NCBI GenBank assembly: GCA_964604845.1
Contig: CAZSBH010000047.1
Span: 1-31,716, forward strand
Source of the DNA: an uncultured Spirochaetaceae bacterium
Lineage (GTDB): Bacteria > Spirochaetota > Spirochaetia > SZUA-6 > DRHE01
DNA length: 31,716 nucleotides
Direction: 5' to 3'
The notes under the pieces are model-generated. The model searched no databases. It was given only the letters and a program-made list of their open reading frames with translations, and was not told the DNA's origin. The stretch's first letter is position 1. Each line of letters starts with the position of its first letter. Shown in pieces: positions 4,279 to 21,117 of this stretch. The translations under genes were made by a program, and so were the position numbers.

Positions 4279-4890
4279 TCAATCCCTATCTGGTTTTCCT
4301 GTGATGAAAGTAGCCACCGGTGCCATGGAAAACATCAGTTCTGTTCCGTCCCGACCGGCTACCAGCTTGAAATTCGTAAAAATTCCCACCGATTCCATCG
4401 GAATGAAATAAGCCCCTGCTTGAAAAATCAACGCCTCAGAGATCGAATCGCTGCCGGCGCCCAGATACAGTTGTACGTACCGATTGAGGCGATTGTTCAT
4501 GGTCAATCCGCCATGATAAAAAAACAGATCATCCGGATGTCCGCCTACACCGCCCGTCAGCAGGCAGGAAAACTGTTTTGAGTCCGTGAAGATGTCGACT
4601 ACGTCAATTTTTGCGTCAACCGACGGGTATATATCTAGATTCAGGGTGTGACCCGCAATGCCGAATTCCAACCAATCCAATGGAGCATAGCTGAAATATC
4701 CGAAGAGCGAATCGCCTACGTATTCATTGTCTTCTGTCAATTCGAACTCTACACCTGCTACCACTGTAACGGTTGATTTGTCTATATCTTTCATGAGATG
4801 GGTTCGCGTAACCGTGGAGGTGGGCAGGGTTAAACAGGATGTGATGAACAATGAAAGCCCGAATAAAACGAGGTTATGGATTTTTTTCAT
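4279..4890 (-). CDS. Lipoprotein of unknown function
   Basis: MKKIHNLVLFGLSLFITSC signal/lipobox. The rest is rich in alternating beta-strand-like segments. SD GGAGGAGAAAG lies upstream. Confidence 0.65.
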   Translation of the reverse strand: MKKIHNLVLFGLSLFITSCLTLPTSTVTRTHLMKDIDKSTVTVVAGVEFELTEDNEYVGDSLFGYFSYAPLDWLEFGIAGHTLNLDIYPSVDAKIDVVDIFTDSKQFSCLLTGGVGGHPDDLFFYHGGLTMNNRLNRYVQLYLGAGSDSISEALIFQAGAYFIPMESVGIFTNFKLVAGRDGTELMFSMAPVATFITGKPDRD

Positions 4891-5148
4891 CTTTCTCCTC
4901 CATTTCTTTCATCGGATCTCGACATCTCGTGCTATTGGCTGCTGCTGTCATATTCATTATATCCGATCCTGATGGCGCTGCAACCAGGCTGGATGTGTGA
5001 GCCGGCGACCATACGGTATTGTGGCTGTCGCCGGGTCGATCATTCGAATCCGTTTCGCCTTTATTTCGAGGTCGGGATCAACAGCAGTACTAGAGTGCCG
5101 ACGACACCCGAGGCCAAGAAGATCGTGCCCAGAGCGATCAATGCGAAT

Positions 5149-5604
5149 CTACCCGGATAGTTCAGATACCCTCCGTTGGAAGTGCTCCGTATGCCATTTG
5201 AGGTGGCGGTAGTAGTCGTTGACCAGCCATTCCAGCGTGCGGGCATTGCCTCCAACGGACCAGGTGTTGGCAAGGCAACTTTCTGGTATATGTCCGGCCA
5301 GCCAGAGAATCAGGCGGTTGTAGTTCAGCCACAGCTCTTTCAGCAAACTCCAGCTCATCTGATTGTAGCGTTGTATCCGTATCCACCTTTCTCCGTCGTA
5401 GGCGGGAAATTCTTCCAGGTGCCCTTCTTGAAGTCGCACGAATCGTTGATGATTGTTGGAGGCCGAATCGATCAGATGCCCGACGATCTCTTTGAGAGAC
5501 CAGGCATCGGCGGAGAGCTGAATCCCCGCTACAGCCTCATCGGTCTGCTCTAAAAGTGAGTGTAGGTGATCGACTGCGGATCGAAATCCTTCAAGATCAA
5601 ACAT
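5149..5604 (-). CDS. DinB-family (DinB_2) four-helix-bundle metalloprotein
   Basis: 151 aa. WSLKEIVGHLIDSASNNHQRF ... YYRHLKWHTEH shows the His-triad pattern typical of the DinB superfamily. The start overlaps the rhaA stop by 8 nt. Confidence 0.8.
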   Translation of the reverse strand: MFDLEGFRSAVDHLHSLLEQTDEAVAGIQLSADAWSLKEIVGHLIDSASNNHQRFVRLQEGHLEEFPAYDGERWIRIQRYNQMSWSLLKELWLNYNRLILWLAGHIPESCLANTWSVGGNARTLEWLVNDYYRHLKWHTEHFQRRVSELSG

Positions 5605-10028: not shown

Positions 10029-11687
10029 ATGAGCATCCGGGTAAAAATTGTCTTGATCGTCCTTCCCCTGATCATTACTACACTGCTGCTGACAGGAGCA
10101 TCCTCCTTCTTTTCCGCCACCAATGCGATTACGGGAATCGCCAAGGAGTTCCTCGGGTTCAAGGCCGCCGAATTCCAGAAGTATGCGGAGAGCCAGTGGC
10201 TGCTGCTGGTAGAAAACAACATGACCGGGAGACCTTCGATGGTGGCAGCCACGCAGGCTGCCATCGAGAGTTACGCGGACAGCATCGTCCGCAGCACCAC
10301 GGAGGTCATCTTTGCCCTGGACAGCCAGCTTGAGGTGGCCATGCAGACCGGGGAGCTGACCGTCGAGGAAGGTGAGCGGGAGGCTCTCCGGCAGATCGTT
10401 GAATCCAGAACCAACGACCTGATCACCCCCCGGATATCCGGAGTTGAGCGGGTGGCCAAGGGTTTTTATTTCGAGCCCTTCGATTGGTACATTATGGTCT
10501 CCGAACAGAGGGACACCTTCTACAGCCAGGTCAATCAGATCACCCAGAGGACCGGAATCATTCTTGTAGTGGCGATCGTACTGGGTGTGATCATGGTCCT
10601 GGTCTTTGCCAACTACCTCACCAATCCGATGACCCGGGTTGCCCAGACGATGGAGAAGATCATTTCAACGAACGATCTGTCGAATAGGGTCCAAGTGGAG
10701 TACAATGACGAGACCGGGAGGCTGGCTCACACCTTCAACATCATGGTGGGCGCTCTAGAGACCGCCTACAAACAGATCAAACGTTACGCTTTCCGTGCCG
10801 TAGTAGCCCAGAAGAATGAGCACAAGATACGCACCATCTTTCAGAAGTATGTGCCCGCCGACGTCATCGACGAGTTCTTCGCGAATCCGGAGAAGATGCT
10901 AGTCGGGGAGAACCGGGTGATTTCCATCCTCTTCTCCGACATCCGCAGTTTCACCAGCATCTCCGAGCAGATGATGCCTGATGACCTGGTTAGCTCCTTA
11001 AACCGCTACTTCACGGTTATGGTTGACATCATCATGGCCCGGGGCGGTACCGTAGACAAGTACATCGGGGATGCCATCATGGCCTTCTTCGGAGCCCCGG
11101 CGCGCCACAAAGACGACGCCCTGCAGTCGGTTTTGGCGGGCATTGAGATGACTGAAGCCCTTGAGGAATTCAATGCCCAGCAGAGGAAACTCGGCAAACC
11201 GGAGTTCCGGATTGGGGTGGGCATCAACTACGGCGTGGTTACGGTCGGGAATATCGGTACGGACAAGAAGATGGACTACACGATCATCGGGGATATGGTC
11301 AACCTGGCCTCTCGTATGGAAGGCTTGACAAAGAAGTACCGCCAGGCTCTTCTAATCTCCGAGAGCCTGCAGCAGAAAGTCAAGGACGAGGTAGCCTTTC
11401 GTCTGATCGACACCGTTGCGGTCAAAGGAAAAACAAAAGGGGTAAAAATCTACACAGCTAGAATACGTCTCGGTGAAGAGGAGAACAGAGCCTGGACCCT
11501 GCATAACACCGCGATGGAGAGCTACTACCGGCGGGATTTCGATGAAGCGATCGGCTATTTTCAGAATGTGCAGAAGATCTTTCCCGATGACTACGCTTCC
11601 CGGCTGATGATTGACCGCTGCCGTCAGTTCAAGGCGGACCCACCTCCCGAGAATTGGGATGGTGTGGAGATCATGACGGAAAAGTAG
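10029..11687 (+). CDS. Membrane sensor nucleotidyl cyclase: TM - extracytoplasmic domain - TM - HAMP - class III adenylate/guanylate cyclase - TPR-like tail
   Basis: 552 aa. The HAMP segment is NRVQVEYNDETGRLAHTFNIMVGAL. Cyclase core motifs are ISILFSDIRSFTSISE, DKYIGDAIMAFFGAP and DYTIIGDMVNLASRMEG. Confidence 0.9.
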   Translation: MSIRVKIVLIVLPLIITTLLLTGASSFFSATNAITGIAKEFLGFKAAEFQKYAESQWLLLVENNMTGRPSMVAATQAAIESYADSIVRSTTEVIFALDSQLEVAMQTGELTVEEGEREALRQIVESRTNDLITPRISGVERVAKGFYFEPFDWYIMVSEQRDTFYSQVNQITQRTGIILVVAIVLGVIMVLVFANYLTNPMTRVAQTMEKIISTNDLSNRVQVEYNDETGRLAHTFNIMVGALETAYKQIKRYAFRAVVAQKNEHKIRTIFQKYVPADVIDEFFANPEKMLVGENRVISILFSDIRSFTSISEQMMPDDLVSSLNRYFTVMVDIIMARGGTVDKYIGDAIMAFFGAPARHKDDALQSVLAGIEMTEALEEFNAQQRKLGKPEFRIGVGINYGVVTVGNIGTDKKMDYTIIGDMVNLASRMEGLTKKYRQALLISESLQQKVKDEVAFRLIDTVAVKGKTKGVKIYTARIRLGEEENRAWTLHNTAMESYYRRDFDEAIGYFQNVQKIFPDDYASRLMIDRCRQFKADPPPENWDGVEIMTEK

Positions 11688-11739: not shown

Positions 11740-14250
11740 GTGAGCGGGTTATTTCAAAAAGCCCAAGAGATACGAAACCATACCCAAACAGGACCCGGAA
11801 GCGAAGACGAATTCTTACTGGGCGAGCAGTCCGGGATCTCCAAAGAGGATCAGCAGGAAATCGTCGAGGAGATCGAGAAGATTTCCGAGGAGAGTCGGAT
11901 CTCCATCACCCCTGAAACCATGGCCATCAAGGCCGTTAAGAGGGGATTCGTCTTCCCTCTTCTGGTGAACATCTTTGCTGTTTTATTACTGGCCGGTGGC
12001 GGGTTTACCCTCTACTGCCTCTTTCAGAGGGGAGAGACGGTCCTCATGGAGGAGGGCGGCGCGATCACTTCGGCACAGGGCAAGCTCATCGAAGAGCTGA
12101 AAAAGGAGTCCGAGGCCGCACTCCAGGCGAAGAACCGGGAGATCTCTCAGATCCAGTCCCAACTGGAGGACATCGACAAAAAGCGCCTTGAACTTCAGGT
12201 GAACATGAACGAGAAGGTTGCAGCCCGGGAGGCGGAACTGCGCGGTGCCCTGGCCGCCGAATTGGCCGCGGAACGGGAACGGCTCCGGCAGCAGGGGATC
12301 TCCGAGGCGGACATCACCAGCCGCCTGGATACACTGGAATCGGAGAAAACGGCTGCGTTCCAGCAAGAGGTTGATTCCTTCAAAAGGCAGGCCGAGGAGG
12401 AGCGCCTGGAGGCCGAGGAAAACCTGCGGGCTCTGCAGAATGAGTATCAGCAAAACCTCACGCAGGCCGAGACGGAACGGGAGCGCGTGCGGGAGGAAGC
12501 AGCAGTCCGGGAGGCGGAACTGCGTAGTCAGCTCGATGCCCGTACCGAGGAGTTGGAACAGGCGACCCTCGAGGCCAGGGAGGAGCTCAACAAATTAGCC
12601 TCCCAGCAGGAGAAGCAGACCTTTGCCACAGCTCAGCTCAACGGCTTCTACAGCCGGGTTAAGGAGGATATCCAGGAGGGAAACTTCGATCAGGCCCTCG
12701 ATGGCCTGGACTCGATCAAAGAATACCTCGACACACCCTTGGTGGCCACACTCCCCAATATGCTGCAGCGCCGGGAGATCGAGCTGTTCGTCGTGGATTC
12801 GATAAGCAGCCTGGTCCAAGGGGAGATGCAGAAAACCGAGGTAGACACCACCTCCCTGATCGCCTCCGCTGACCTGCTCAATGATATGAAGAATCGGGTC
12901 ATCGCGGGAGATGGACTGTTTCGACAGGGTGATATCGCGGCGGCGGAAGCCAAGTATCGGGAAGCCCTGAATATGATGCCTGAAATCAACAAGGCTCACT
13001 CCTATTTCTTGGCCCGGGGGGATGATGCGGAACAGGTTCGCCGGCAAACCCTGAGGGATTTTCTCCGGCGCGCCGAGGCGGCCTTCGGACGCGGAGAGTA
13101 TTCGGCGGCCCTCGACAACTACATAAAAGCTTTCGCCTATCTTCCTGAAGATGCGGCCACGGTGGAAAAGATGATCAGCCAGGTTCGCCGTTCCGGGTAT
13201 GAGCTGGGTATCGCCCAGCTGCGTCGCCGGGATACTTCAAATGCGGCGGGCCCTTTGGCTGCGGCGGAAGGGTTATACAATCAGGAGGACTACAACGGCG
13301 CGATTCTCGGGTATATCGACCTGATCGCCGGATATCCCAACAGCAGCCAGGTTACAGCCGCCCTCGAGGGGGTCAACAAATCGGTGGAGGCGCTGGAGAA
13401 GGAAGCCGAAGCTCGGGGAACCTTGGTCACCGAAGGAGCCGCCACGGAAGGAGCCGCCGCAGAAGGAGCAGCCGCAGACGCCCTGCGGAGCGATATAGCC
13501 GCATTGGAAAAAACCCTTGAGGATAGGAACAGCGAGATCCAAGACCTTCAGGCGCGTCTTGAAGCCCAGAGCGGGGATTCCAGCGCGTTGGAACAAAGTT
13601 TGGAGGAGAAGAATCGGGAAATCGCGGCCTTGAAAGGGGAAATCGAAAGGGCCAAGTCGGATGCCGGGCAGATGCAGAAAGAGCTGGAAGAGCGGGTCGG
13701 CAGCCTGACCGCGGAGCTCGAATCCAAAGTCGCCCTGGCCGAGACCCTGCAGGCGGAGAAACAGGCCCTGGAAGAGGAGATCGCCTCCCTGAACAGCCAG
13801 ATCGAGCAGATGCAGGCGGAGCAGACCGCCGCCCTGGCCAACCTGGACGAGGAGGTGGGGAAGAAGATCACCCGGTTGGAGAATGTCGAGCGCCGCTACA
13901 ACAAGTTGGTGGACAACTACCAGGAATATGCCAGGCAGGAGGATGCCTTGCTGAATGCCCGCGGAGAGGAAGCGCTGATTCAGAGCAAGCTCTACCTGAA
14001 CGCCTTTCTCACCGCCAGCGATGAGAGCTTTCCCGGTCTCTGGGACCGGGTCAAGCGTTACGATGAGGCCTTCGAGAAGGCCGGCCGGGCCAGCGCCGCG
14101 CAAGACCTGAGCGACATTCTCTTCGAGATTTCCGTCCGCAGCCGCCCCGAATCCCGCGAACTGTTCCTGGAGAGCGAAAAGGCCCGTTACCAGGACGTAC
14201 CGGAAATGGTCGACTTGATCGATGATCTGACAGATCTGGTAATGCAGTAG
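11740..14250 (+). CDS. Membrane-anchored coiled-coil / TPR-like protein, unknown function
   Basis: 836 aa from a GTG start. It has one TM segment (FVFPLLVNIFAVLLLAGGGFTLYCLF) and two long E/A/L/Q/R-rich coiled-coil regions flanking a TPR-like middle (GDIAAAEAKYREAL..., GEYSAALDNYIKAF..., EDYNGAILGYIDLI...). The start codon is uncertain. Confidence 0.7.
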   Translation: MSGLFQKAQEIRNHTQTGPGSEDEFLLGEQSGISKEDQQEIVEEIEKISEESRISITPETMAIKAVKRGFVFPLLVNIFAVLLLAGGGFTLYCLFQRGETVLMEEGGAITSAQGKLIEELKKESEAALQAKNREISQIQSQLEDIDKKRLELQVNMNEKVAAREAELRGALAAELAAERERLRQQGISEADITSRLDTLESEKTAAFQQEVDSFKRQAEEERLEAEENLRALQNEYQQNLTQAETERERVREEAAVREAELRSQLDARTEELEQATLEAREELNKLASQQEKQTFATAQLNGFYSRVKEDIQEGNFDQALDGLDSIKEYLDTPLVATLPNMLQRREIELFVVDSISSLVQGEMQKTEVDTTSLIASADLLNDMKNRVIAGDGLFRQGDIAAAEAKYREALNMMPEINKAHSYFLARGDDAEQVRRQTLRDFLRRAEAAFGRGEYSAALDNYIKAFAYLPEDAATVEKMISQVRRSGYELGIAQLRRRDTSNAAGPLAAAEGLYNQEDYNGAILGYIDLIAGYPNSSQVTAALEGVNKSVEALEKEAEARGTLVTEGAATEGAAAEGAAADALRSDIAALEKTLEDRNSEIQDLQARLEAQSGDSSALEQSLEEKNREIAALKGEIERAKSDAGQMQKELEERVGSLTAELESKVALAETLQAEKQALEEEIASLNSQIEQMQAEQTAALANLDEEVGKKITRLENVERRYNKLVDNYQEYARQEDALLNARGEEALIQSKLYLNAFLTASDESFPGLWDRVKRYDEAFEKAGRASAAQDLSDILFEISVRSRPESRELFLESEKARYQDVPEMVDLIDDLTDLVMQ

Positions 14251-14278: not shown

Positions 14279-15457
14279 TTAGTGCAATTCTCTCAGCTTA
14301 TTCGTTGGGAGTGCATAAACCCGAAAGTACAGCTCTTCCCGATCCCATTCCTGCGACCATAACGGCATTGTGAAGAAAACCGCATGTTCACTGACGAGAA
14401 ACATCTCGAATGCAAAGTGGAGGCCCCCGAGGACGAAGTCCGAAACCTGCTCCCCCTCCGAGTTGTATATGTAGCAGCGATTGTTCTCGAAGCTCAATAG
14501 ATCACCGTTGGACAGCAATGCATCGATCCGCCTCTCCATCTTCACCATCGGTTTGATCAATCCGCTGTCGTGCCAGGAGTAGTTCTTGTACTTCCGTTCG
14601 ACCGCGGAGTAGGTGCTCACATAGCTTCGACCGCTCGCCGGATGATGATAATAAAAGGCATTTTCCAAGTCCGGGGGTAGCGTGAGAGGCATATTAGTTC
14701 TGGTTGGTATCGATGCTGCCCCACTAATCCCGCTGGACAGATCCGTGGTAGCTTCGATCTCGTCGTAGGTTCCGCTTCCATCTATTTTGCAGAGGAAGTA
14801 GTGATAATCAGCGGCGGGTGGCCAATCGGCAAATGGATAGATCGACGAACCCACGATCGTCGAACCGCTGATCGACAAAGCCACCGTCAGCTGTTGATCA
14901 TCCGCAACAGCGATGTAAGCTGTGTTTCTATCGTATTGTAGCAGAAGTAGACGGTTGTCCTGATAGTTGTTTGCGTTATAGCGGGTAAAACTAAGGTAAT
15001 AGTCGGCATCGATTGGGTAAGGTGGGCCGATTGCACCGGTACTTGAGCCCTTCAGGGTTTCCACCCGATAGTTCAGTTTGCGGAGGTTCTCGTTTATCAT
15101 GTCCATTCCCCACCACCAGCCGTAAACAGCGAATATATCCTCGTTGTCGACTGCGTCCTTGCCTTCGTAGCGGACATAGAGAAGGCGGATATCCCGCTCG
15201 TCCGCGCGTACGATGAACCCGCTCATGAAATCTTCCGGCCCGGAGCCGGTGCCTTTGTTGGGGAGGAAATAGTAATCTGACCCCTCGAACTCGTATCGGC
15301 CGATGGGCAGGGGACCGATCTGCCTGGTTTCAGCACCCAAATCCACCATCTTTTCTGCCGTGAGAATCGCCAGGGAGAGATCTTCATTATACGGGGGGAA
15401 GCCGCAGGTTAGGAGGAACAAAGGTAAAATCAGAAGCAGTGCTGTCCGTTTGATCAT
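14279..15457 (-). CDS. Lipoprotein of unknown function (module 2 lipoprotein)
   Basis: MIKRTALLLILPLFLLTCG lipobox. 392 aa, rich in Y/W/beta-strand segments. The ATG overlaps the upstream stop (ATGA 15457-15454). Confidence 0.7.
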   Translation of the reverse strand: MIKRTALLLILPLFLLTCGFPPYNEDLSLAILTAEKMVDLGAETRQIGPLPIGRYEFEGSDYYFLPNKGTGSGPEDFMSGFIVRADERDIRLLYVRYEGKDAVDNEDIFAVYGWWWGMDMINENLRKLNYRVETLKGSSTGAIGPPYPIDADYYLSFTRYNANNYQDNRLLLLQYDRNTAYIAVADDQQLTVALSISGSTIVGSSIYPFADWPPAADYHYFLCKIDGSGTYDEIEATTDLSSGISGAASIPTRTNMPLTLPPDLENAFYYHHPASGRSYVSTYSAVERKYKNYSWHDSGLIKPMVKMERRIDALLSNGDLLSFENNRCYIYNSEGEQVSDFVLGGLHFAFEMFLVSEHAVFFTMPLWSQEWDREELYFRVYALPTNKLRELH

Positions 15458-16698
15458 AGCAGCAATCGAACTCCGAATCGGAAGTTGGCCAGGTGGATTA
15501 GGATTTTTCCAATAGGAAGATAGCCGGAAGGCTCACGATCCGGTGGAAAGGACGCCAGCATTAAAAAGGTGTTCTCCCGGCTCCCGGTCCAGTATATGTA
15601 TGGGGAGTAATCGAAATAAACCTTGCGGTTGGGATTTCGTGAATATTCGAAGCCGAAGGTCGGCTGAGCTCCGAATGGTGCGATTGGTTCCAACCCCCAG
15701 TAACCGGATGCCGTAATAATTCGCCAAAACGCTCCTACGGAAAAATACGGTCGTATGTAACGGTCCGATGCGTTGAAATAGAATCCTAAACTGAGGTTGT
15801 AGTGGCTCAGTGTGTGGCTGACAAAAGCTCTTCCCTCGTAGCGCTCACCGTCATCGAGTACGATGCCGAGAAGGTAGGTCAGCATCCCAACCTTCCCGAA
15901 CACCGAATCTGGAACAAAGAAATAGATGAAGTCAAACCCTGGAAAGGTCAGATTGTTTAAATAGACATCAAAACCGAACCGTGCCCCCTGCTCTTGGGGA
16001 AGTGAAACGATCTTCTCGGTCTGATCCATGTAGATCTGGCCTTCGACCGGGAGGTAGCCGGGCTTGATCGCTCGGTAGGGTAGAGTGGCCGGTAAAGGCA
16101 CGTCCGCACTGGTCTGTCCATCTTTTGCTACTTTGAGACGTTTCCAGGCACTGCCTTGAATACGCGTTCCCGGAAGAGCCTCGAAGTACAGGGTTCCCCG
16201 GTTGATATCTTTGGACAGTGCGGTCAGGTAGTACTCGGCAATTGGATCTGTGAAATCTTCCCAGGTCTCACGCTGGAGATCCCGGGCACCCCTTCTGTAG
16301 GTTTTTTCCACGGTCTTGTCGAGAGCGATTTGTCCGGTAAGCATGTCCAGCAGCCTAACCGTAAGGGTACAAGATGCAAAATTCCCGGAAACCACGATGT
16401 GCAGCCACGAATCCGCTTCCATCTGCTCAGCTGTTTCGGTTTTCTCCGCGTCCGACGGCGGGATCGCTCCATCCCGGTAGTCTTTCGGTGCTACTCGGGG
16501 GCTGGCTTCAGCCAGCTTGATCAGCAGGGTCTCATAGAGCAGGACTTGTTCCTCTTCCGAAAAGTCCGAGCCCGGGAGGACTTCGTAGAAGAGCAACAGG
16601 CGGCGGGTCTCCTCTGTTTCTTCCGAAACTTGTGCGGACAAACAAACCGAGATTAACAGGGCGAGTAATAGAAGGATGAAGATCCGTTTGCCACCCAT
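15454..16698 (-). CDS. Secreted protein: LpoB/CsgG-like N-domain + PEGA-like region + putative beta-barrel (module 2)
   Basis: The ORF 15454..16833 is trimmed to MGGKRIFILLLLALLISVCLSAQ (signal peptide) at 16698, 1 nt after the upstream stop. The C-terminal 170 aa is alternating and aromatic-rich. Domain calls are by eye only. Confidence 0.6.
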   Translation of the reverse strand: MGGKRIFILLLLALLISVCLSAQVSEETEETRRLLLFYEVLPGSDFSEEEQVLLYETLLIKLAEASPRVAPKDYRDGAIPPSDAEKTETAEQMEADSWLHIVVSGNFASCTLTVRLLDMLTGQIALDKTVEKTYRRGARDLQRETWEDFTDPIAEYYLTALSKDINRGTLYFEALPGTRIQGSAWKRLKVAKDGQTSADVPLPATLPYRAIKPGYLPVEGQIYMDQTEKIVSLPQEQGARFGFDVYLNNLTFPGFDFIYFFVPDSVFGKVGMLTYLLGIVLDDGERYEGRAFVSHTLSHYNLSLGFYFNASDRYIRPYFSVGAFWRIITASGYWGLEPIAPFGAQPTFGFEYSRNPNRKVYFDYSPYIYWTGSRENTFLMLASFPPDREPSGYLPIGKILIHLANFRFGVRLLL

Positions 16699-16699
16699 A

Positions 16700-17707
16700 C
16701 TAGAATCCAGTATTCGCCTTGTACAGGCGGAAGTTGCCTTCGTCGAAAACGTAGTAATAATCGCCGTCGATATCGAAGTCCAAGGGTATTTCGTCTTCAG
16801 AGGAAATTTGGAATCGTTTCTTGATCTCACCATTGAGAGTCAGTAGATAGTATCTCCCGCGGGTACGCGTCTGCGCTACCACGCCCTTTCTGGTATAGAA
16901 GACTTCGCTGTCTCCGCGCACGCCGTCCACCCTAGGTTGGACGGGGTAATTGCTGAACACAGGACTCAATAGGGTTGTAGAATAATGACTGGCCGGGGTC
17001 CATACGATCTGGAGAAACCCTTCATCCTTGTCCTGTTCCCCGCCGTGTAAGAATAGATAAACGGGATTTCCGGGGACAGAAGTGTGTGGATCGAGGACTT
17101 GCGGGTCGTACCCGATTCCTTGAAGCCGCATCTCCGTGGGTGCGCCCAACGGTGTTGCCGGATAGCTGGGAGAGGTCCAGGTATTGCTGAATCGGATGTA
17201 ACTAATATCGGAGCCAGTAGTATTGAGCAGATAATTACTGCCCGCGACACCGAAGGCGTAATGATCCCAATTGTAGCCAATATTCGGGTAATAGGCTTGG
17301 GAAGTCAGGGGATCTCCGTAAAACCTGACATCCCCGACCACGAAGTCGTCGTTCGCGTCAACGAGACTGAGGTTGCTGTGAAAATCGATCTCTCCTTTTG
17401 TGATCAGCTCCAGCGATGTGTCGAATGCATATACCCGCTGGCCTCCAGGATCCCTGCGAATGATAAGAAACACATATTCCCGGCCGGTTGAATCATTCTT
17501 GAGCACATGAATGTCATTCTGCCAGAGTTCTCCGCCTGCTCCGATAAATTGCTCAATCTCACCGGTCAGATCCACCGATGCGACGGCCTGGGACAGATAA
17601 CCGGGAAATGGGGATAAAGTGAGTATAGTAACAACTAGATCACAACCGGACAGGCAGAGAAGCGTTGAGAGAATAATCAGGAGTAAAATCAACAATCGCT
17701 TTACCAT
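16700..17707 (-). CDS. Lipoprotein of unknown function (module 1 lipoprotein)
   Basis: The ORF 16700..17878 is trimmed to MVKRLLILLLIILSTLLCLSGC (lipobox LSGC) at 17707. It overlaps the upstream gene's stop by 7 nt (ATGGTAA). Confidence 0.7.
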   Translation of the reverse strand: MVKRLLILLLIILSTLLCLSGCDLVVTILTLSPFPGYLSQAVASVDLTGEIEQFIGAGGELWQNDIHVLKNDSTGREYVFLIIRRDPGGQRVYAFDTSLELITKGEIDFHSNLSLVDANDDFVVGDVRFYGDPLTSQAYYPNIGYNWDHYAFGVAGSNYLLNTTGSDISYIRFSNTWTSPSYPATPLGAPTEMRLQGIGYDPQVLDPHTSVPGNPVYLFLHGGEQDKDEGFLQIVWTPASHYSTTLLSPVFSNYPVQPRVDGVRGDSEVFYTRKGVVAQTRTRGRYYLLTLNGEIKKRFQISSEDEIPLDFDIDGDYYYVFDEGNFRLYKANTGF

Positions 17708-18936
17708 TTCCAAGCGAATCCCAAGGTGAAAGATGTGGGTCCCTCCCCGAATGCGCTGATCCATCCGCGTCCCAACAGATTTGCCGGTCCTACTCCCAGC
17801 GCAAATTTCTGCTCTGACCTGACAAACAGTACAGACTTCAGAAAGTTCAGCTCCAAGGCGGCATTGATCACATTCCAATAAAAATCGGCGTACATCGGTT
17901 GGTCGGCGAGTGCAAAATAAGTGGCGATCATTCCGAAGCCGGTAGAAAAATTGAACCGGGCTGCACGATCCGGGCCTGTGAACAGATAGCCTCCAAACAG
18001 GGCTCTCAGATCGTGGTGAAACACCGGTTTGCTGTCAGAAAGGTTGTGCTGAACATAGAAGTAATGTTCGGCGCTCAAATAGCTTAGATCCGGTCTCAGA
18101 TAGAACCGCTGGGCGAGTCCGAATCCGAGCAGTTGGCCCACCGTCCAGGTTAGCTCTGTGGCTGAGCGTGTCTGTTTACGGAGCGGTTGGAGCTTGATAA
18201 TCATTTCCGGCTCTTTTAGCTTCAGGGTCTCGCTGCCCGTGTGGTATCCTTCCTTTCGCTTTTCTACGGTGATTTTGGTACCGAGCGCGAAGGGAATCGG
18301 CGGCAACAGCAGTTTGCCCTCGGATATGCGGCCCACGAAGCCCTCATCCCCCAGATAAATCTCCGCATCTTCGTCAGCCGAAAGCAGGGCAATCTCTTCA
18401 ACTACCGGGGATTCTACGACCGGAGGAGGGCCGAGCAGGTGTATTCCCGGAATCAGTTCCGTAACCGCTTCGCCGATGGCATTGTAGATCGAAAGATTGA
18501 TCCGGGCAATCTTGAATACTCCGTTGATCATCGCCTTCTGGGTAACATCGTAGCATTTGATTTCGAGTACCATCTGCCGCTCCGCCACGCTGTAAAAACT
18601 GACTAGGGCTATCTCTGCTTCAACCTCCTCCGCAATTCCGAGGGCGACGTTTCCCTGATAGAGTTCACCGACTCGAACCCCGCGCCGTTCTCTCACTTTT
18701 TCCCACTCCTCCCGGGGGATGATATCGAAGCCGGCATTCTTGAGCTCGGAACGCAGCTGGTTGGAGATGATCGACTGGTACTCCTTGAACTCTTCGGAGG
18801 CGGACAGATCGACCGTGGGAAACAGGCAGGTTTTAAAGGGGATAGAGGAAGCAGATTCCTGGCTCCATACCAACCCTGTGGACAGAAAAAGAGTTACTAA
18901 AAGAGCGGCTGCGAGGCAAATACCCCTGTACTTCAC
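17701..18936 (-). CDS. Secreted protein: LpoB/CsgG-like N-domain + PEGA-like region + putative outer-membrane beta-barrel (module 1)
   Basis: 411 aa. Signal peptide MKYRGICLAAALLVTLFLSTGLVWSQ. The N-domain pattern is ...AEIALVSFYSVAERQMVLEIKCYDVTQKAMI. The C-terminus ...FTLGFAWKW ends on an aromatic residue, which is typical of OM barrels. Confidence 0.65.
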   Translation of the reverse strand: MKYRGICLAAALLVTLFLSTGLVWSQESASSIPFKTCLFPTVDLSASEEFKEYQSIISNQLRSELKNAGFDIIPREEWEKVRERRGVRVGELYQGNVALGIAEEVEAEIALVSFYSVAERQMVLEIKCYDVTQKAMINGVFKIARINLSIYNAIGEAVTELIPGIHLLGPPPVVESPVVEEIALLSADEDAEIYLGDEGFVGRISEGKLLLPPIPFALGTKITVEKRKEGYHTGSETLKLKEPEMIIKLQPLRKQTRSATELTWTVGQLLGFGLAQRFYLRPDLSYLSAEHYFYVQHNLSDSKPVFHHDLRALFGGYLFTGPDRAARFNFSTGFGMIATYFALADQPMYADFYWNVINAALELNFLKSVLFVRSEQKFALGVGPANLLGRGWISAFGEGPTSFTLGFAWKW

Positions 18937-19036: not shown

Positions 19037-20176
19037 ATGGACAAATCGACAGTAGCCCTGGTTCGCTGTCTGACCTACGATGAGGATGAAGTATTCGCCG
19101 CCGTACGGAGTGGAATCGACCTTCTCGGAGGCCCCGATGCTTTTGCGGCGGCGAACGAGCAGATCCTGCTCAAGCCGAATGTGTTGGCCGGGGATCCCCC
19201 GGATCGCTGCGTCTGCACACATCCTGCGATCCTCAAAGCGGTCGGGCGTGTCTTGCAATCCGTCACTCCCTCCCTCTCCTACGGGGATTCCGCCGGTCAC
19301 GGAGATGCACTGCCCAACCTCACCACCTCCGGGCTCGCCTCTGCCGCCGAACAGATCGGTCTCGCGGCGGCGGATTTCGATCGGGGGCAGCAGGTGGATC
19401 TTCCGGACTCTCCCCTCACCAAACGATTCCTTATTGCAGACGGAGTCCTCGCCGCAGACGGGATTGTGAGCCTGTCCAAGTTGAAGACCCACATGGTGAC
19501 CCGGATGACCGGGGCGGTAAAGAACGTGTACGGATGTATCCCCGGACAGACCAAGCGCAGGTATCACTTCACATATCCCAACGCCTTCGCCTTCTCACAG
19601 ATGCTCGTGGCGTTGAACCTGCTGCTCAAACCGAAGGTGCGGCTGCATATCATGGACGGCGTAATGGCCATGGAGGGAAACGGGCCGCGCAACGGCGACC
19701 CCGTGCATATCGGGGTGCTGCTCTTCTCGACCGATCCGGTGGCCCTGGATGCGGTGATGTGCAATCTCATCGAACTGAATCCGGTGCGCGTGCCGACCAG
19801 CGGACCAGGGAGACGTTGGGGTCTTGGTACCTACAGGATGGAGGAGATCGATGTTGTCGGGGACTCGCCGTCCGCGGCACGACCGGGCGGCTTCAAGGTC
19901 AGTCGGGGACCGATCAGGGACCTGTCACCCCAAGGCATACTGTCGATCATAGACAATCTGATCGCCCAGAGACCCGTCCTGAATACTAGAAGATGCGTGC
20001 GCTGCGGCCAGTGCGTACAGGCCTGTCCGGTTCAGCCCAAGGCGCTTGACTGGCGCGATGGCAACACGAAGCAGCCGCCGACGTACACTTATAGCCGCTG
20101 CATCCGCTGTTACTGCTGTCAGGAGATCTGCCCCGAGGGGGCGATCTCGGTCAAGAATACCTTTTTGAAACTTTGA
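19037..20176 (+). CDS. DUF362-domain protein with C-terminal 2x[4Fe-4S] ferredoxin domain
   Basis: 379 aa. N-terminal VALVRC...ILLKPNVL pattern. The C-terminus carries CVRCGQCVQACP and CIRCYCCQEICP. Confidence 0.85.
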   Translation: MDKSTVALVRCLTYDEDEVFAAVRSGIDLLGGPDAFAAANEQILLKPNVLAGDPPDRCVCTHPAILKAVGRVLQSVTPSLSYGDSAGHGDALPNLTTSGLASAAEQIGLAAADFDRGQQVDLPDSPLTKRFLIADGVLAADGIVSLSKLKTHMVTRMTGAVKNVYGCIPGQTKRRYHFTYPNAFAFSQMLVALNLLLKPKVRLHIMDGVMAMEGNGPRNGDPVHIGVLLFSTDPVALDAVMCNLIELNPVRVPTSGPGRRWGLGTYRMEEIDVVGDSPSAARPGGFKVSRGPIRDLSPQGILSIIDNLIAQRPVLNTRRCVRCGQCVQACPVQPKALDWRDGNTKQPPTYTYSRCIRCYCCQEICPEGAISVKNTFLKL

Positions 20177-20195: not shown

Positions 20196-21041
20196 TTAGA
20201 ACAACTTTCCGGTCTGATAGTCCAGAAAGGCTTGGCGGATCTCTTCTTCGCTGTTCATAACGAAGGGTCCTCCCCGAACGATGGGCTCGTTGTGGGGCAC
20301 GGCGCTGAAGAAAAGAAACCCGGAAGCATCCTCGAGGCCCCGAATGGATACCCGGGCTTCCTCCTCCAACAGGGCCAGCTCTCCGAAGGCTACCGCTTGA
20401 GATTGGCCGCCAGTATCCACAGTGACCGATCCCGTGTGTACGTACAGGAAGCTGCTATCCTGTGCTGATCGAGGCGCCTCGAACAGGCTGTCTTTCTCGA
20501 TCGAGACATCGAAGTAATTCACGGGAAACCGGGTCAAAGCCGGCCCGCTTTTCCCTTCGAAGCTTCCGGAGATGAGTTTTGCCGTGACACCATCTTTTCT
20601 GACCGTGGGGATGTCCTCCGGATTTAGATGCTGATAACGGGGCTCGATCGTCTTGTCCTTGGCGGCCAGGGTGAGCCAGAGCTGGTATCCCCACAGCTGG
20701 CCGTCCTGCATCTCCGGCATTTCGCTGTGAATGATCCCCTTGCCCGCGGTCATCCACTGCACGCACCCGGGCGCAAGGACTCCCCCCCCGCCTCGTGAAT
20801 CCTTGTGGCGGAACTTTCCGGCGATCATGTAGGTGATCGTCTCGATACCCCGATGGGGATGATCGGGGAAGCCGGCGATGTAGTCCTTTGGATTGTCGCT
20901 TTTGAACTCATCGAGCAGGACGAAGGGGTCTACCTGGTTGAGACGGGGCGAGCCGATGATCCGGTGCAGGCGAACACCTGCACCGTCGATCACCGATATT
21001 CCTCTAACGATCCTGGATATCCCGCTGTTTTCGCTGTTCAT
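20196..21041 (-). CDS. Pirin-family bicupin
   Basis: FPDHPHRGIETITYMIAG ... VQWMTAGKGIIHSEMP. The ORF 20196..21077 is trimmed to the third Met, which has GAGGAA 7 nt upstream. Alternative starts are at 21059 and 21077. Confidence 0.88.
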   Translation of the reverse strand: MNSENSGISRIVRGISVIDGAGVRLHRIIGSPRLNQVDPFVLLDEFKSDNPKDYIAGFPDHPHRGIETITYMIAGKFRHKDSRGGGGVLAPGCVQWMTAGKGIIHSEMPEMQDGQLWGYQLWLTLAAKDKTIEPRYQHLNPEDIPTVRKDGVTAKLISGSFEGKSGPALTRFPVNYFDVSIEKDSLFEAPRSAQDSSFLYVHTGSVTVDTGGQSQAVAFGELALLEEEARVSIRGLEDASGFLFFSAVPHNEPIVRGGPFVMNSEEEIRQAFLDYQTGKLF

Positions 21042-21117
21042 TATCAGTTTCCTCTGCATTGAAGAGTACGTATTCAACGCAGGATTGTCAAAGGAGCTTG
21101 GTCGAATCTACCCTCCA

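Follow-up and report, generated by a model that had tools for sequence, protein, structure and literature searches.

A four-gene operon encoding predicted outer-membrane barrel proteins and lipoproteins in uncultured Spirochaetaceae

What might four tightly packed envelope genes, two for secreted barrel-like proteins and two for lipoproteins, do together in a spirochaete? We address this question for a 31,716-nucleotide (nt) stretch of DNA from an uncultured Spirochaetaceae bacterium (contig CAZSBH010000047.1; hereafter the window), in which four minus-strand genes, here named G1–G4, lie end to end between positions 14279 and 18936. An original prediction, made from the letters alone, read them as a tandemly duplicated module of a barrel protein and a lipoprotein, serving either surface-lipoprotein display and export or envelope anchoring. 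As judged from their sequences, the four genes form one translationally coupled operon, and in the structural models known folds stand in a new arrangement. To the further proposal, that the four products assemble into a single outer-membrane (OM) complex acting as a barrel-anchored periplasmic scaffold or tether, we give slightly less than an even chance.

Four genes joined by conserved overlaps

The genes and their overlapping junctions are as follows.

17701..18936, minus strand: G1, 411 amino acids (aa), GTG start; secreted OM protein
16700..17707, minus strand: G2, 335 aa; lipoprotein
15454..16698, minus strand: G3, 414 aa; remote paralogue of G1 by profile alignment
14279..15457, minus strand: G4, 392 aa; lipoprotein with a predicted beta-propeller fold
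17701..17707, minus strand: G1/G2 junction, ATGGTAA, a 7-nt overlap of the G1 stop with the G2 start (KW-stop/MVK)
15454..15457, minus strand: G3/G4 junction, ATGA, a 4-nt overlap of the G3 stop with the G4 start

Between G2 and G3 the sequence reads TAG-t-ATG, a gap of 1 nt. The open reading frames (ORFs) and direct reading thus reproduce the coordinates, lengths and strand originally given, along with all three junctions (7-nt overlap, 1-nt gap, 4-nt overlap). The ORF list also holds longer versions of G2 and G3, but the family alignments back the shorter starts, which we take to be the real ones because the signal peptides then fall at the N terminus.

All four are real genes and no chance ORFs, since each has a family of homologues: 75 for G1, 66 for G2 and 55 for G3 among 90%-identity clusters, and 186 for G4 among 50%-identity representatives. 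The few homologue records that carry a name all belong to Spirochaetaceae, Spirochaetales or Spirochaetes metagenome-assembled genomes. Synteny was assessed in 34 related loci (L numbers below), drawn from protein look-up and from genome and metagenome scans, and scanned with family hidden Markov models (HMMs); the genome-collection scan yielded five close relatives, and the metagenome scan for G4 relatives was made with a closer subset of the G4 alignment. Almost all loci whose flanking DNA extends far enough show the order G1–G2–G3–G4, among them loci in which G4 shares only 26–30% identity with the window protein, and order and overlaps together recur in about 20 loci. The four-gene set singled out originally is therefore syntenic elsewhere, and is known to date only from a group of uncultured spirochaetes of Spirochaetaceae type.

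The overlaps themselves are strongly conserved. At the G1/G2 junction, ATGGT[AG]A is kept in 18 of 18 loci, so that the same bases encode both the invariant Lys-Trp at the end of G1 and the Met-Val with which G2 begins; through this dual coding the terminal aromatic residue would be constrained twice, by the beta-signal and by the start codon. The G3/G4 overlap has the form [AG]TGA in 20 of 22 loci. The G2/G3 junction is a gap of 0–2 nt across loci, replaced in a divergent clade by a second ATGGTGA overlap. Such conserved overlaps argue for coupled, fixed-ratio expression of the subunits. Matches to promoter and terminator consensus sequences in the window show no excess over the shuffled expectation, and tRNA and Rfam scans of the window found nothing.

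The junctions also carry some finer detail. In the window and at the L001–L032 junctions, Lys-Trp-stop of G1 and Met-Val-Lys/Arg of G2 are both read from A-ATG-GT[AG]-A. In the divergent clade (L019, L028 and L032, also L007 and L010), G2 ends in Gly-Trp-stop and G3 starts with Met-Val-Arg via ATGGTGA. The two G2/G3 junction types match two sub-clades of the G3 alignment, the window falling in the clade with the 0–2 nt gap. In three long contigs from ENA (L009, L033 and L002) the cluster appears as frameshifted fragments, with many other genes split too; these look like error-prone long-read assemblies, not pseudogenes.

The operon defines four families without an entry in the searched copies of Pfam, NCBIfam and PADLOC or sequence relatives in the PDB, in keeping with the initial impression that no characterized family was recognizable. 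Neither Pfam nor NCBIfam matched G1–G4 at threshold, and when every sequence in the G1 and G2 alignments was run against Pfam, no more than faint matches appeared. PDB sequence searches with all four family profiles returned nothing meaningful, PADLOC found no defence-system match to G1–G4, and a literature search found no description of this operon.

Predicted architecture of the barrel proteins and lipoproteins

An AlphaFold2 model of G1, built from a 24-sequence alignment (pLDDT 82.4), resolves the protein into a signal peptide and three domains.

18862..18936, minus strand: signal peptide, residues 1–25, likely cleaved after VWS; hydrophobic N terminus in all homologues
18433..18834, minus strand: alpha/beta periplasmic domain, residues 35–168, modelled with an LpoB / GNA1162 / PelC / TolB-N-like fold
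18193..18396, minus strand: PEGA-like beta-sandwich, residues 181–248, with seven short strands in the model
17704..18168, minus strand: predicted C-terminal 8-stranded OM beta-barrel, residues 257–411 (155 residues), with eight long strands in the model

The signal peptide is of the signal peptidase I (SPI) type, modelled as a helix at residues 4–23 with a low-pLDDT linker at 21–31; about ten low-confidence residues stand ahead of the alpha/beta domain. In a Foldseek search of the PDB, the best match to the alpha/beta part was the C-terminal domain of LpoB (4q6l, E 2.4e-6, TMt 0.66), with further LpoB-fold matches (4q6z, 2mii) and others to GNA1162 (4hrv), PelC (5t0z and 9h80), TolB (7mx5) and FlgT (3w1e). 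The sandwich matched a carboxypeptidase regulatory-type domain (2nsm, prob 0.99), and the barrel matched the OmpA transmembrane (TM) domain, NspA, OmpX, PagL, OmpW and Ail (prob 1.0). Model and Foldseek together reproduce the layout first read from the sequence: a signal peptide, an LpoB/CsgG/FlgO-type domain, a PEGA-like part and a small C-terminal barrel. Faint Pfam matches in some family members agree with this architecture, namely FlgO (in two G1 homologues) and DUF3280, PEGA (PF08308) in one G1 homologue (E 0.091; the window proteins have no match) and OMP_b-brl (PF13505) in one G1 homologue (E 0.025, sub-threshold). The terminal Trp is invariant in the G1 family.

BLASTP finds nothing significant between G1 and G3. 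Profile alignment of the two families with hhalign does: about 280 collinear columns, signal peptides excluded, align with Prob 96.5% and E 7e-10, against E 0.24 for the reversed control. Single G1 domains each align to the collinear part of G3, best for the middle domain (E 9e-4), then for the N-domain (E 0.012) and the barrel (E 0.035). The suspected kinship is thus borne out at profile level, by which measure G1 and G3 are remote paralogues with a shared collinear three-domain layout. G3 likewise has an SPI-type signal peptide, whose Cys is not conserved in the G3 family. The two proteins end differently, as was originally seen: G1 with the aromatic GFAWKW, G3 with RLLL (GVRLLL), its family having Leu or Ile as the terminal residue and hydrophobics alternating at −1, −3 and −5. 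That G3 too carries an 8-stranded barrel is suggested indirectly, by its homology to G1 and by family-averaged amphipathic beta segments at collinear sites in the C-terminal regions of both; residues 289–368 of G3 give a weak OMP_b-brl match (E 0.36, 11.4 bits against a cut-off of 28.7).

G2 and G4 have lipoboxes, LSGC and LLTC, in which the predicted lipidation sites are invariant (Cys22 in 28 of 28 G2-family sequences; Cys18 in 32 of 32 G4-family sequences), and their original description as lipobox lipoproteins holds. Conserved motifs in G2 are YTRKG, DFDIDGxYYY and a C-terminal RLYKAxTGF; G4 has a PPY[DN]E[DE]LSLA helix after Cys18 and a C-terminal VYsIPTxxL. In its AlphaFold2 model (pLDDT 89.4, pTM 0.87) G4 folds as an all-beta propeller with some 22 strands, for which Foldseek lists a sialidase (8t26, E 1e-5), DDB1, YncE and GH43 proteins, with TM-scores of at most 0.38. 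Its conserved helix begins near residue 25 (pLDDT >85) and directly follows the lipobox Cys, so that G4 appears to have no flexible tether. In the G2 family, most members have Asp at residue 23, next to the lipobox Cys (CDL/CDI). An Asp at this position would signal inner-membrane retention in E. coli; this rule is not known to hold in spirochaetes.

The two lipoproteins did not prove to be a second pair of paralogues. BLASTP between them is not significant (E 0.12), and the G2 HMM matched 0 of 150 G4-family proteins. With signal peptides included, hhalign gave the two families a Prob of 24%, and of 63% when the alignments were enlarged; once the sequences were cut at the Cys, E was 0.18 against 0.094 for the reversed control. 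The score had come from the signal peptide and lipobox, and we rejected paralogy: on present profiles G2 and G4 are not detectably homologous. The similar C-terminal endings once remarked on are present as a short motif (LYKAxT versus VYsIPT), though statistical support for the likeness is lacking. With no detectable homology between the lipoproteins, a duplicated two-gene module is supported only for its barrel half: G1 and G3 stand as a pair (E 7e-10), and G2 and G4 do not (E 0.18 versus 0.094).

Possible roles of the operon products

Eight-stranded barrels of the OmpA/OmpX type offer no passage for polypeptides, and LpoB, PelC, FlgP and TolB N-terminal domains are OM-proximal periplasmic adaptors or rings. 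Since such a barrel is an anchor and no conduit, we read G1 and G3 as pinning their periplasmic domains to the OM. Both would be integral OM proteins, the C-terminal 8-stranded barrel serving as a membrane anchor without a channel and holding the LpoB/PelC/TolB-N-like domain and the PEGA-like sandwich in the periplasm just beneath the OM. The barrel would in this way replace the lipid anchor used by LpoB, PelC and FlgP. Each barrel protein is translationally coupled to a lipoprotein, and one of these lipoproteins at least (G4) is a predicted propeller. We infer that the lipoproteins G2 and G4 face the periplasm and that the four proteins bind each other, and the resulting hetero-oligomeric platform could tie the OM to the wall or to the inner membrane, perhaps through an 836-aa coiled-coil protein encoded next to G4. 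Use as a tether or scaffold would have its analogues in lipid-anchored LpoB, PelC and FlgP and in soluble TolB elsewhere.

The coiled-coil gene and the one upstream of it are read towards the operon.

11740..14250, plus strand: coiled-coil protein, 836 aa, convergent with the operon; predicted to be anchored in the inner membrane by one TM segment (about residues 65–96); candidate partner by association only
10029..11687, plus strand: 2-TM sensor–HAMP–class III nucleotidyl cyclase (Pfam HAMP and Guanylate_cyc), upstream of the coiled-coil gene

The 836-aa protein has long coiled coils and faint TPR signals far below Pfam thresholds, and its charge distribution suggests an N-in orientation. Its gene and the cyclase recur downstream of G4 in most loci reaching that far, and both are still nearby in four rearranged loci. 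In L011 the cyclase immediately precedes G1, in the same orientation; in L009, L020 and L026 an insertion of about 3 kb separates G4 from the two genes (it holds an ABC transporter in L009).

Several points weigh against a joint tethering complex. The majority of the loci belong to a single narrow lineage of Spirochaetaceae in which synteny extends genome-wide (L034 shares the pirin, DUF362, FecR and PALP neighbours), so the association with the coiled-coil and cyclase genes may be inherited gene order at the scale of the window, not a functional link. Pfam finds no peptidoglycan-binding domain of the OmpA_C or LysM kind in G1–G4. L011 has G1–G2–G3 without a detectable G4; L002, whose cluster diverges furthest (its G1 is 33% identical), retains G1, a fragment of G2, and G3, with no detectable G4, coiled-coil gene or cyclase. 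The Foldseek matches of G1, finally, are assigned to its domains from match length and secondary-structure type. Two further observations concern the distribution of G4. After G3, L002 has two short ORFs (151 and 194 aa). L031 (1–2921) encodes a G4-like lipoprotein N terminus with no G1–G3 within 2.6 kb upstream and a cyclase homologue on the same contig; elsewhere G4 was seen only within the four-gene order.

The absence of G4 from the two divergent loci, along with the lack of detectable homology between G2 and G4, would also suit a set of four unconnected envelope proteins with an operon in common but no joint complex. We hold this to be very unlikely, as the start/stop overlaps are kept across the family and the gene order is near-constant. 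The same strict pairing of barrel gene and lipoprotein gene with coupled translation could be taken as the mark of a Slam-like system, in which each barrel translocates its downstream lipoprotein or holds it on the cell surface, where spirochaetes display many lipoproteins. This surface-export reading, one of the two roles originally offered, is now disfavoured and in our judgement has very little chance of being right: with its eight strands in the model and its Foldseek matches to OmpA, OmpX and NspA, the G1 barrel is too small to pass lipoproteins, whereas Slam-type translocators have a larger, 14-stranded barrel. The apparent lack of a flexible tether after the lipobox Cys of G4 and the bulky periplasmic domains of G1 and G3, which resemble adaptor or ring domains and not chaperone TPRs, point the same way. 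The other role first proposed, envelope anchoring, is the better reading.

The alpha/beta domain of G1 leaves room for more specific functions. Its matches to PelC (5t0z, 9h80) and FlgT (3w1e), and the faint FlgO signal in two homologues, would fit a barrel-anchored oligomeric ring or funnel of the PelC / CsgG / FlgP–FlgT type, serving polymer secretion or periplasmic flagella. In L002 (1–21230) the cluster does lie between flagellar rod and P-ring genes (rod, FlgA, FlgI and FlgJ-like) and two flaA genes, but these surroundings are mixed with housekeeping genes, and no pel, csg or flagellar genes adjoin the cluster in the window or about 30 other loci; we regard a ring as unlikely. With the LpoB C-terminal domain as the best structural match (E 2.4e-6, TMt 0.66), G1 and G3 might instead reach through the wall to activate a penicillin-binding protein (PBP) as LpoB-like regulators of peptidoglycan synthesis, the lipoproteins and the coiled-coil/TPR protein being TolB- and CpoB-like; the faint TPR signals of the neighbour and the predicted propeller fold of G4, a fold that the C-terminal domain of TolB also has, speak for this. 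Set against it are the absence of a PBP gene from the window neighbourhood, the absence from G1 and G3 of both the long disordered linker and the lipid anchor of LpoB, the TPR matches far below Pfam thresholds, and a fold common to many proteins of differing function. We consider such a regulator highly doubtful.

The surroundings of the operon offered one further candidate role. PADLOC matched the HAMP cyclase to its models of PycC, the Pycsar cyclase (E 2e-28), and the coiled-coil protein, which has no cyclic-nucleotide-binding (cNMP-binding) domain, to the SMC-like coiled-coil models LmuB, JetC and ZorA. We rejected a Pycsar defence system: these are generic similarities to a cyclase fold and to coiled coils, and no cNMP-binding effector is present. 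Over the coiled-coil gene, positions 12000–14000 of the window show an AT skew of +0.25, a GC skew of +0.1 and long antisense ORFs (for example 13273–14103, 276 aa), which is consistent with repetitive coding sequence rich in Glu, Ala, Gln and Lys and does not indicate real antisense genes. On the other side of the operon, a DUF362 and 4Fe-4S protein gene (19037–20176, plus strand) is divergent from G1, with a pirin gene next (20196–21077, minus strand). The divergent DUF362 gene is found in the window, L001, L003–L007, L009, L010, L012, L019, L028 and L034, and the pirin gene follows it in the window, L001 and L034; this proximity probably reflects synteny within the lineage, with no functional link behind it. 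Upstream of the cluster in L009, near a second cyclase copy and coiled-coil-like fragments, lies a gene for a small secreted PEGA-domain protein (4877–5155, minus strand), which the HMMs rejected as a relative of G1 and G3. The remaining genes of the window belong to unrelated metabolism and signalling.

Spirochaete OM attachment and organization are poorly understood, and few integral OM proteins have a known role. What sets the operon apart is its predicted mode of anchoring, a domain that is lipid-anchored elsewhere (LpoB, PelC, FlgP) sitting on its own 8-stranded barrel and occurring twice, in diverged form, each time coupled to a lipoprotein. Should the products be an OM tether or trans-envelope scaffold, they would give a compact genetic handle on the envelope architecture of free-living Spirochaetaceae and would touch on the proposal that TolB descends from a barrel-anchored ancestor. 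If they form only a lineage-specific structural OM complex, the interest remains local.

Comparison with known envelope systems

Residues ~35–168 of G1 share their modelled fold with LpoB, GNA1162, PelC, the TolB N-domain and FlgT/FlgP/FlgO, which likewise act at the periplasmic face of the OM. G1 differs from the LpoB group in its C-terminal 8-stranded barrel anchor, where they have an N-terminal lipid, in its extra PEGA-like domain and in its gene context. LpoB is an OM lipoprotein of E. coli and Salmonella that activates PBP1B via the UB2H domain of that enzyme and has a long disordered linker; G1 and G3 have SPI-type signal peptides, no conserved Cys or lipobox, and no such linker. To PelC and CsgG the likeness is one of fold only. 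Proteins of this type are lipoproteins forming rings of 9- to 12-mers and are encoded in pel or csg operons, whereas G1 lacks a lipobox and is not flanked by pel or csg genes.

Over its last 155 residues G1 matches OmpA, OmpX, NspA, PagL and OmpW (prob 1.0), and it has the terminal aromatic residue. Compared with OmpA, the order is reversed, with the periplasmic domains N-terminal and the barrel C-terminal; there is no OmpA_C domain, and G3 ends in Leu. Neither G1 nor G3 reaches the Pfam OMP_b-brl threshold. Slam systems likewise place an OM barrel gene next to a lipoprotein gene, but Slam (DUF560) has periplasmic TPRs and a larger barrel; G1 and G3 have no Pfam match and carry LpoB-like and PEGA-like domains, and the G1 barrel is modelled with eight strands. 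G4 resembles BamB/YncE-type propellers in being a predicted N-terminally lipidated all-beta propeller. It differs from them in lacking PQQ/BamB repeat similarity, in TM-scores of at most 0.38, in its own motifs and in being encoded after G3 (with the exception of L031). In Treponema pallidum, TP0923 is a 'PEGA domain-containing' predicted OM protein (PMC10600179).

In TolB, the N-domain and propeller form one chain encoded with tolQRA-pal; here the corresponding parts are split between G1/G3 and G4, the window holds no tol or pal genes, and TolB is not among the top 50 Foldseek matches of G4. Of published concepts, the 'OMP-TolB-like' proteins come nearest: these proposed TolB ancestors unite an OM barrel, a Rossmann-like domain and a six-bladed propeller in a single chain (PMC12204202, Mol Biol Evol 2025). 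Going by that description, the operon has the same parts, an OM barrel, a TolB-N-like domain and a propeller, all predicted to sit at the periplasmic face of the OM. It departs from them in that the propeller G4 is a separate lipoprotein and the modelled G1 barrel is 8-stranded, theirs being described as FhaC-like (PMC12204202). A split 'OMP-TolB-like' set might, together with the coiled-coil/TPR-like protein and the cyclase, make up a spirochaete-specific trans-envelope tether and signalling device that coordinates OM attachment with wall growth, a role akin to that of Tol-Pal/CpoB, although we think this quite improbable.

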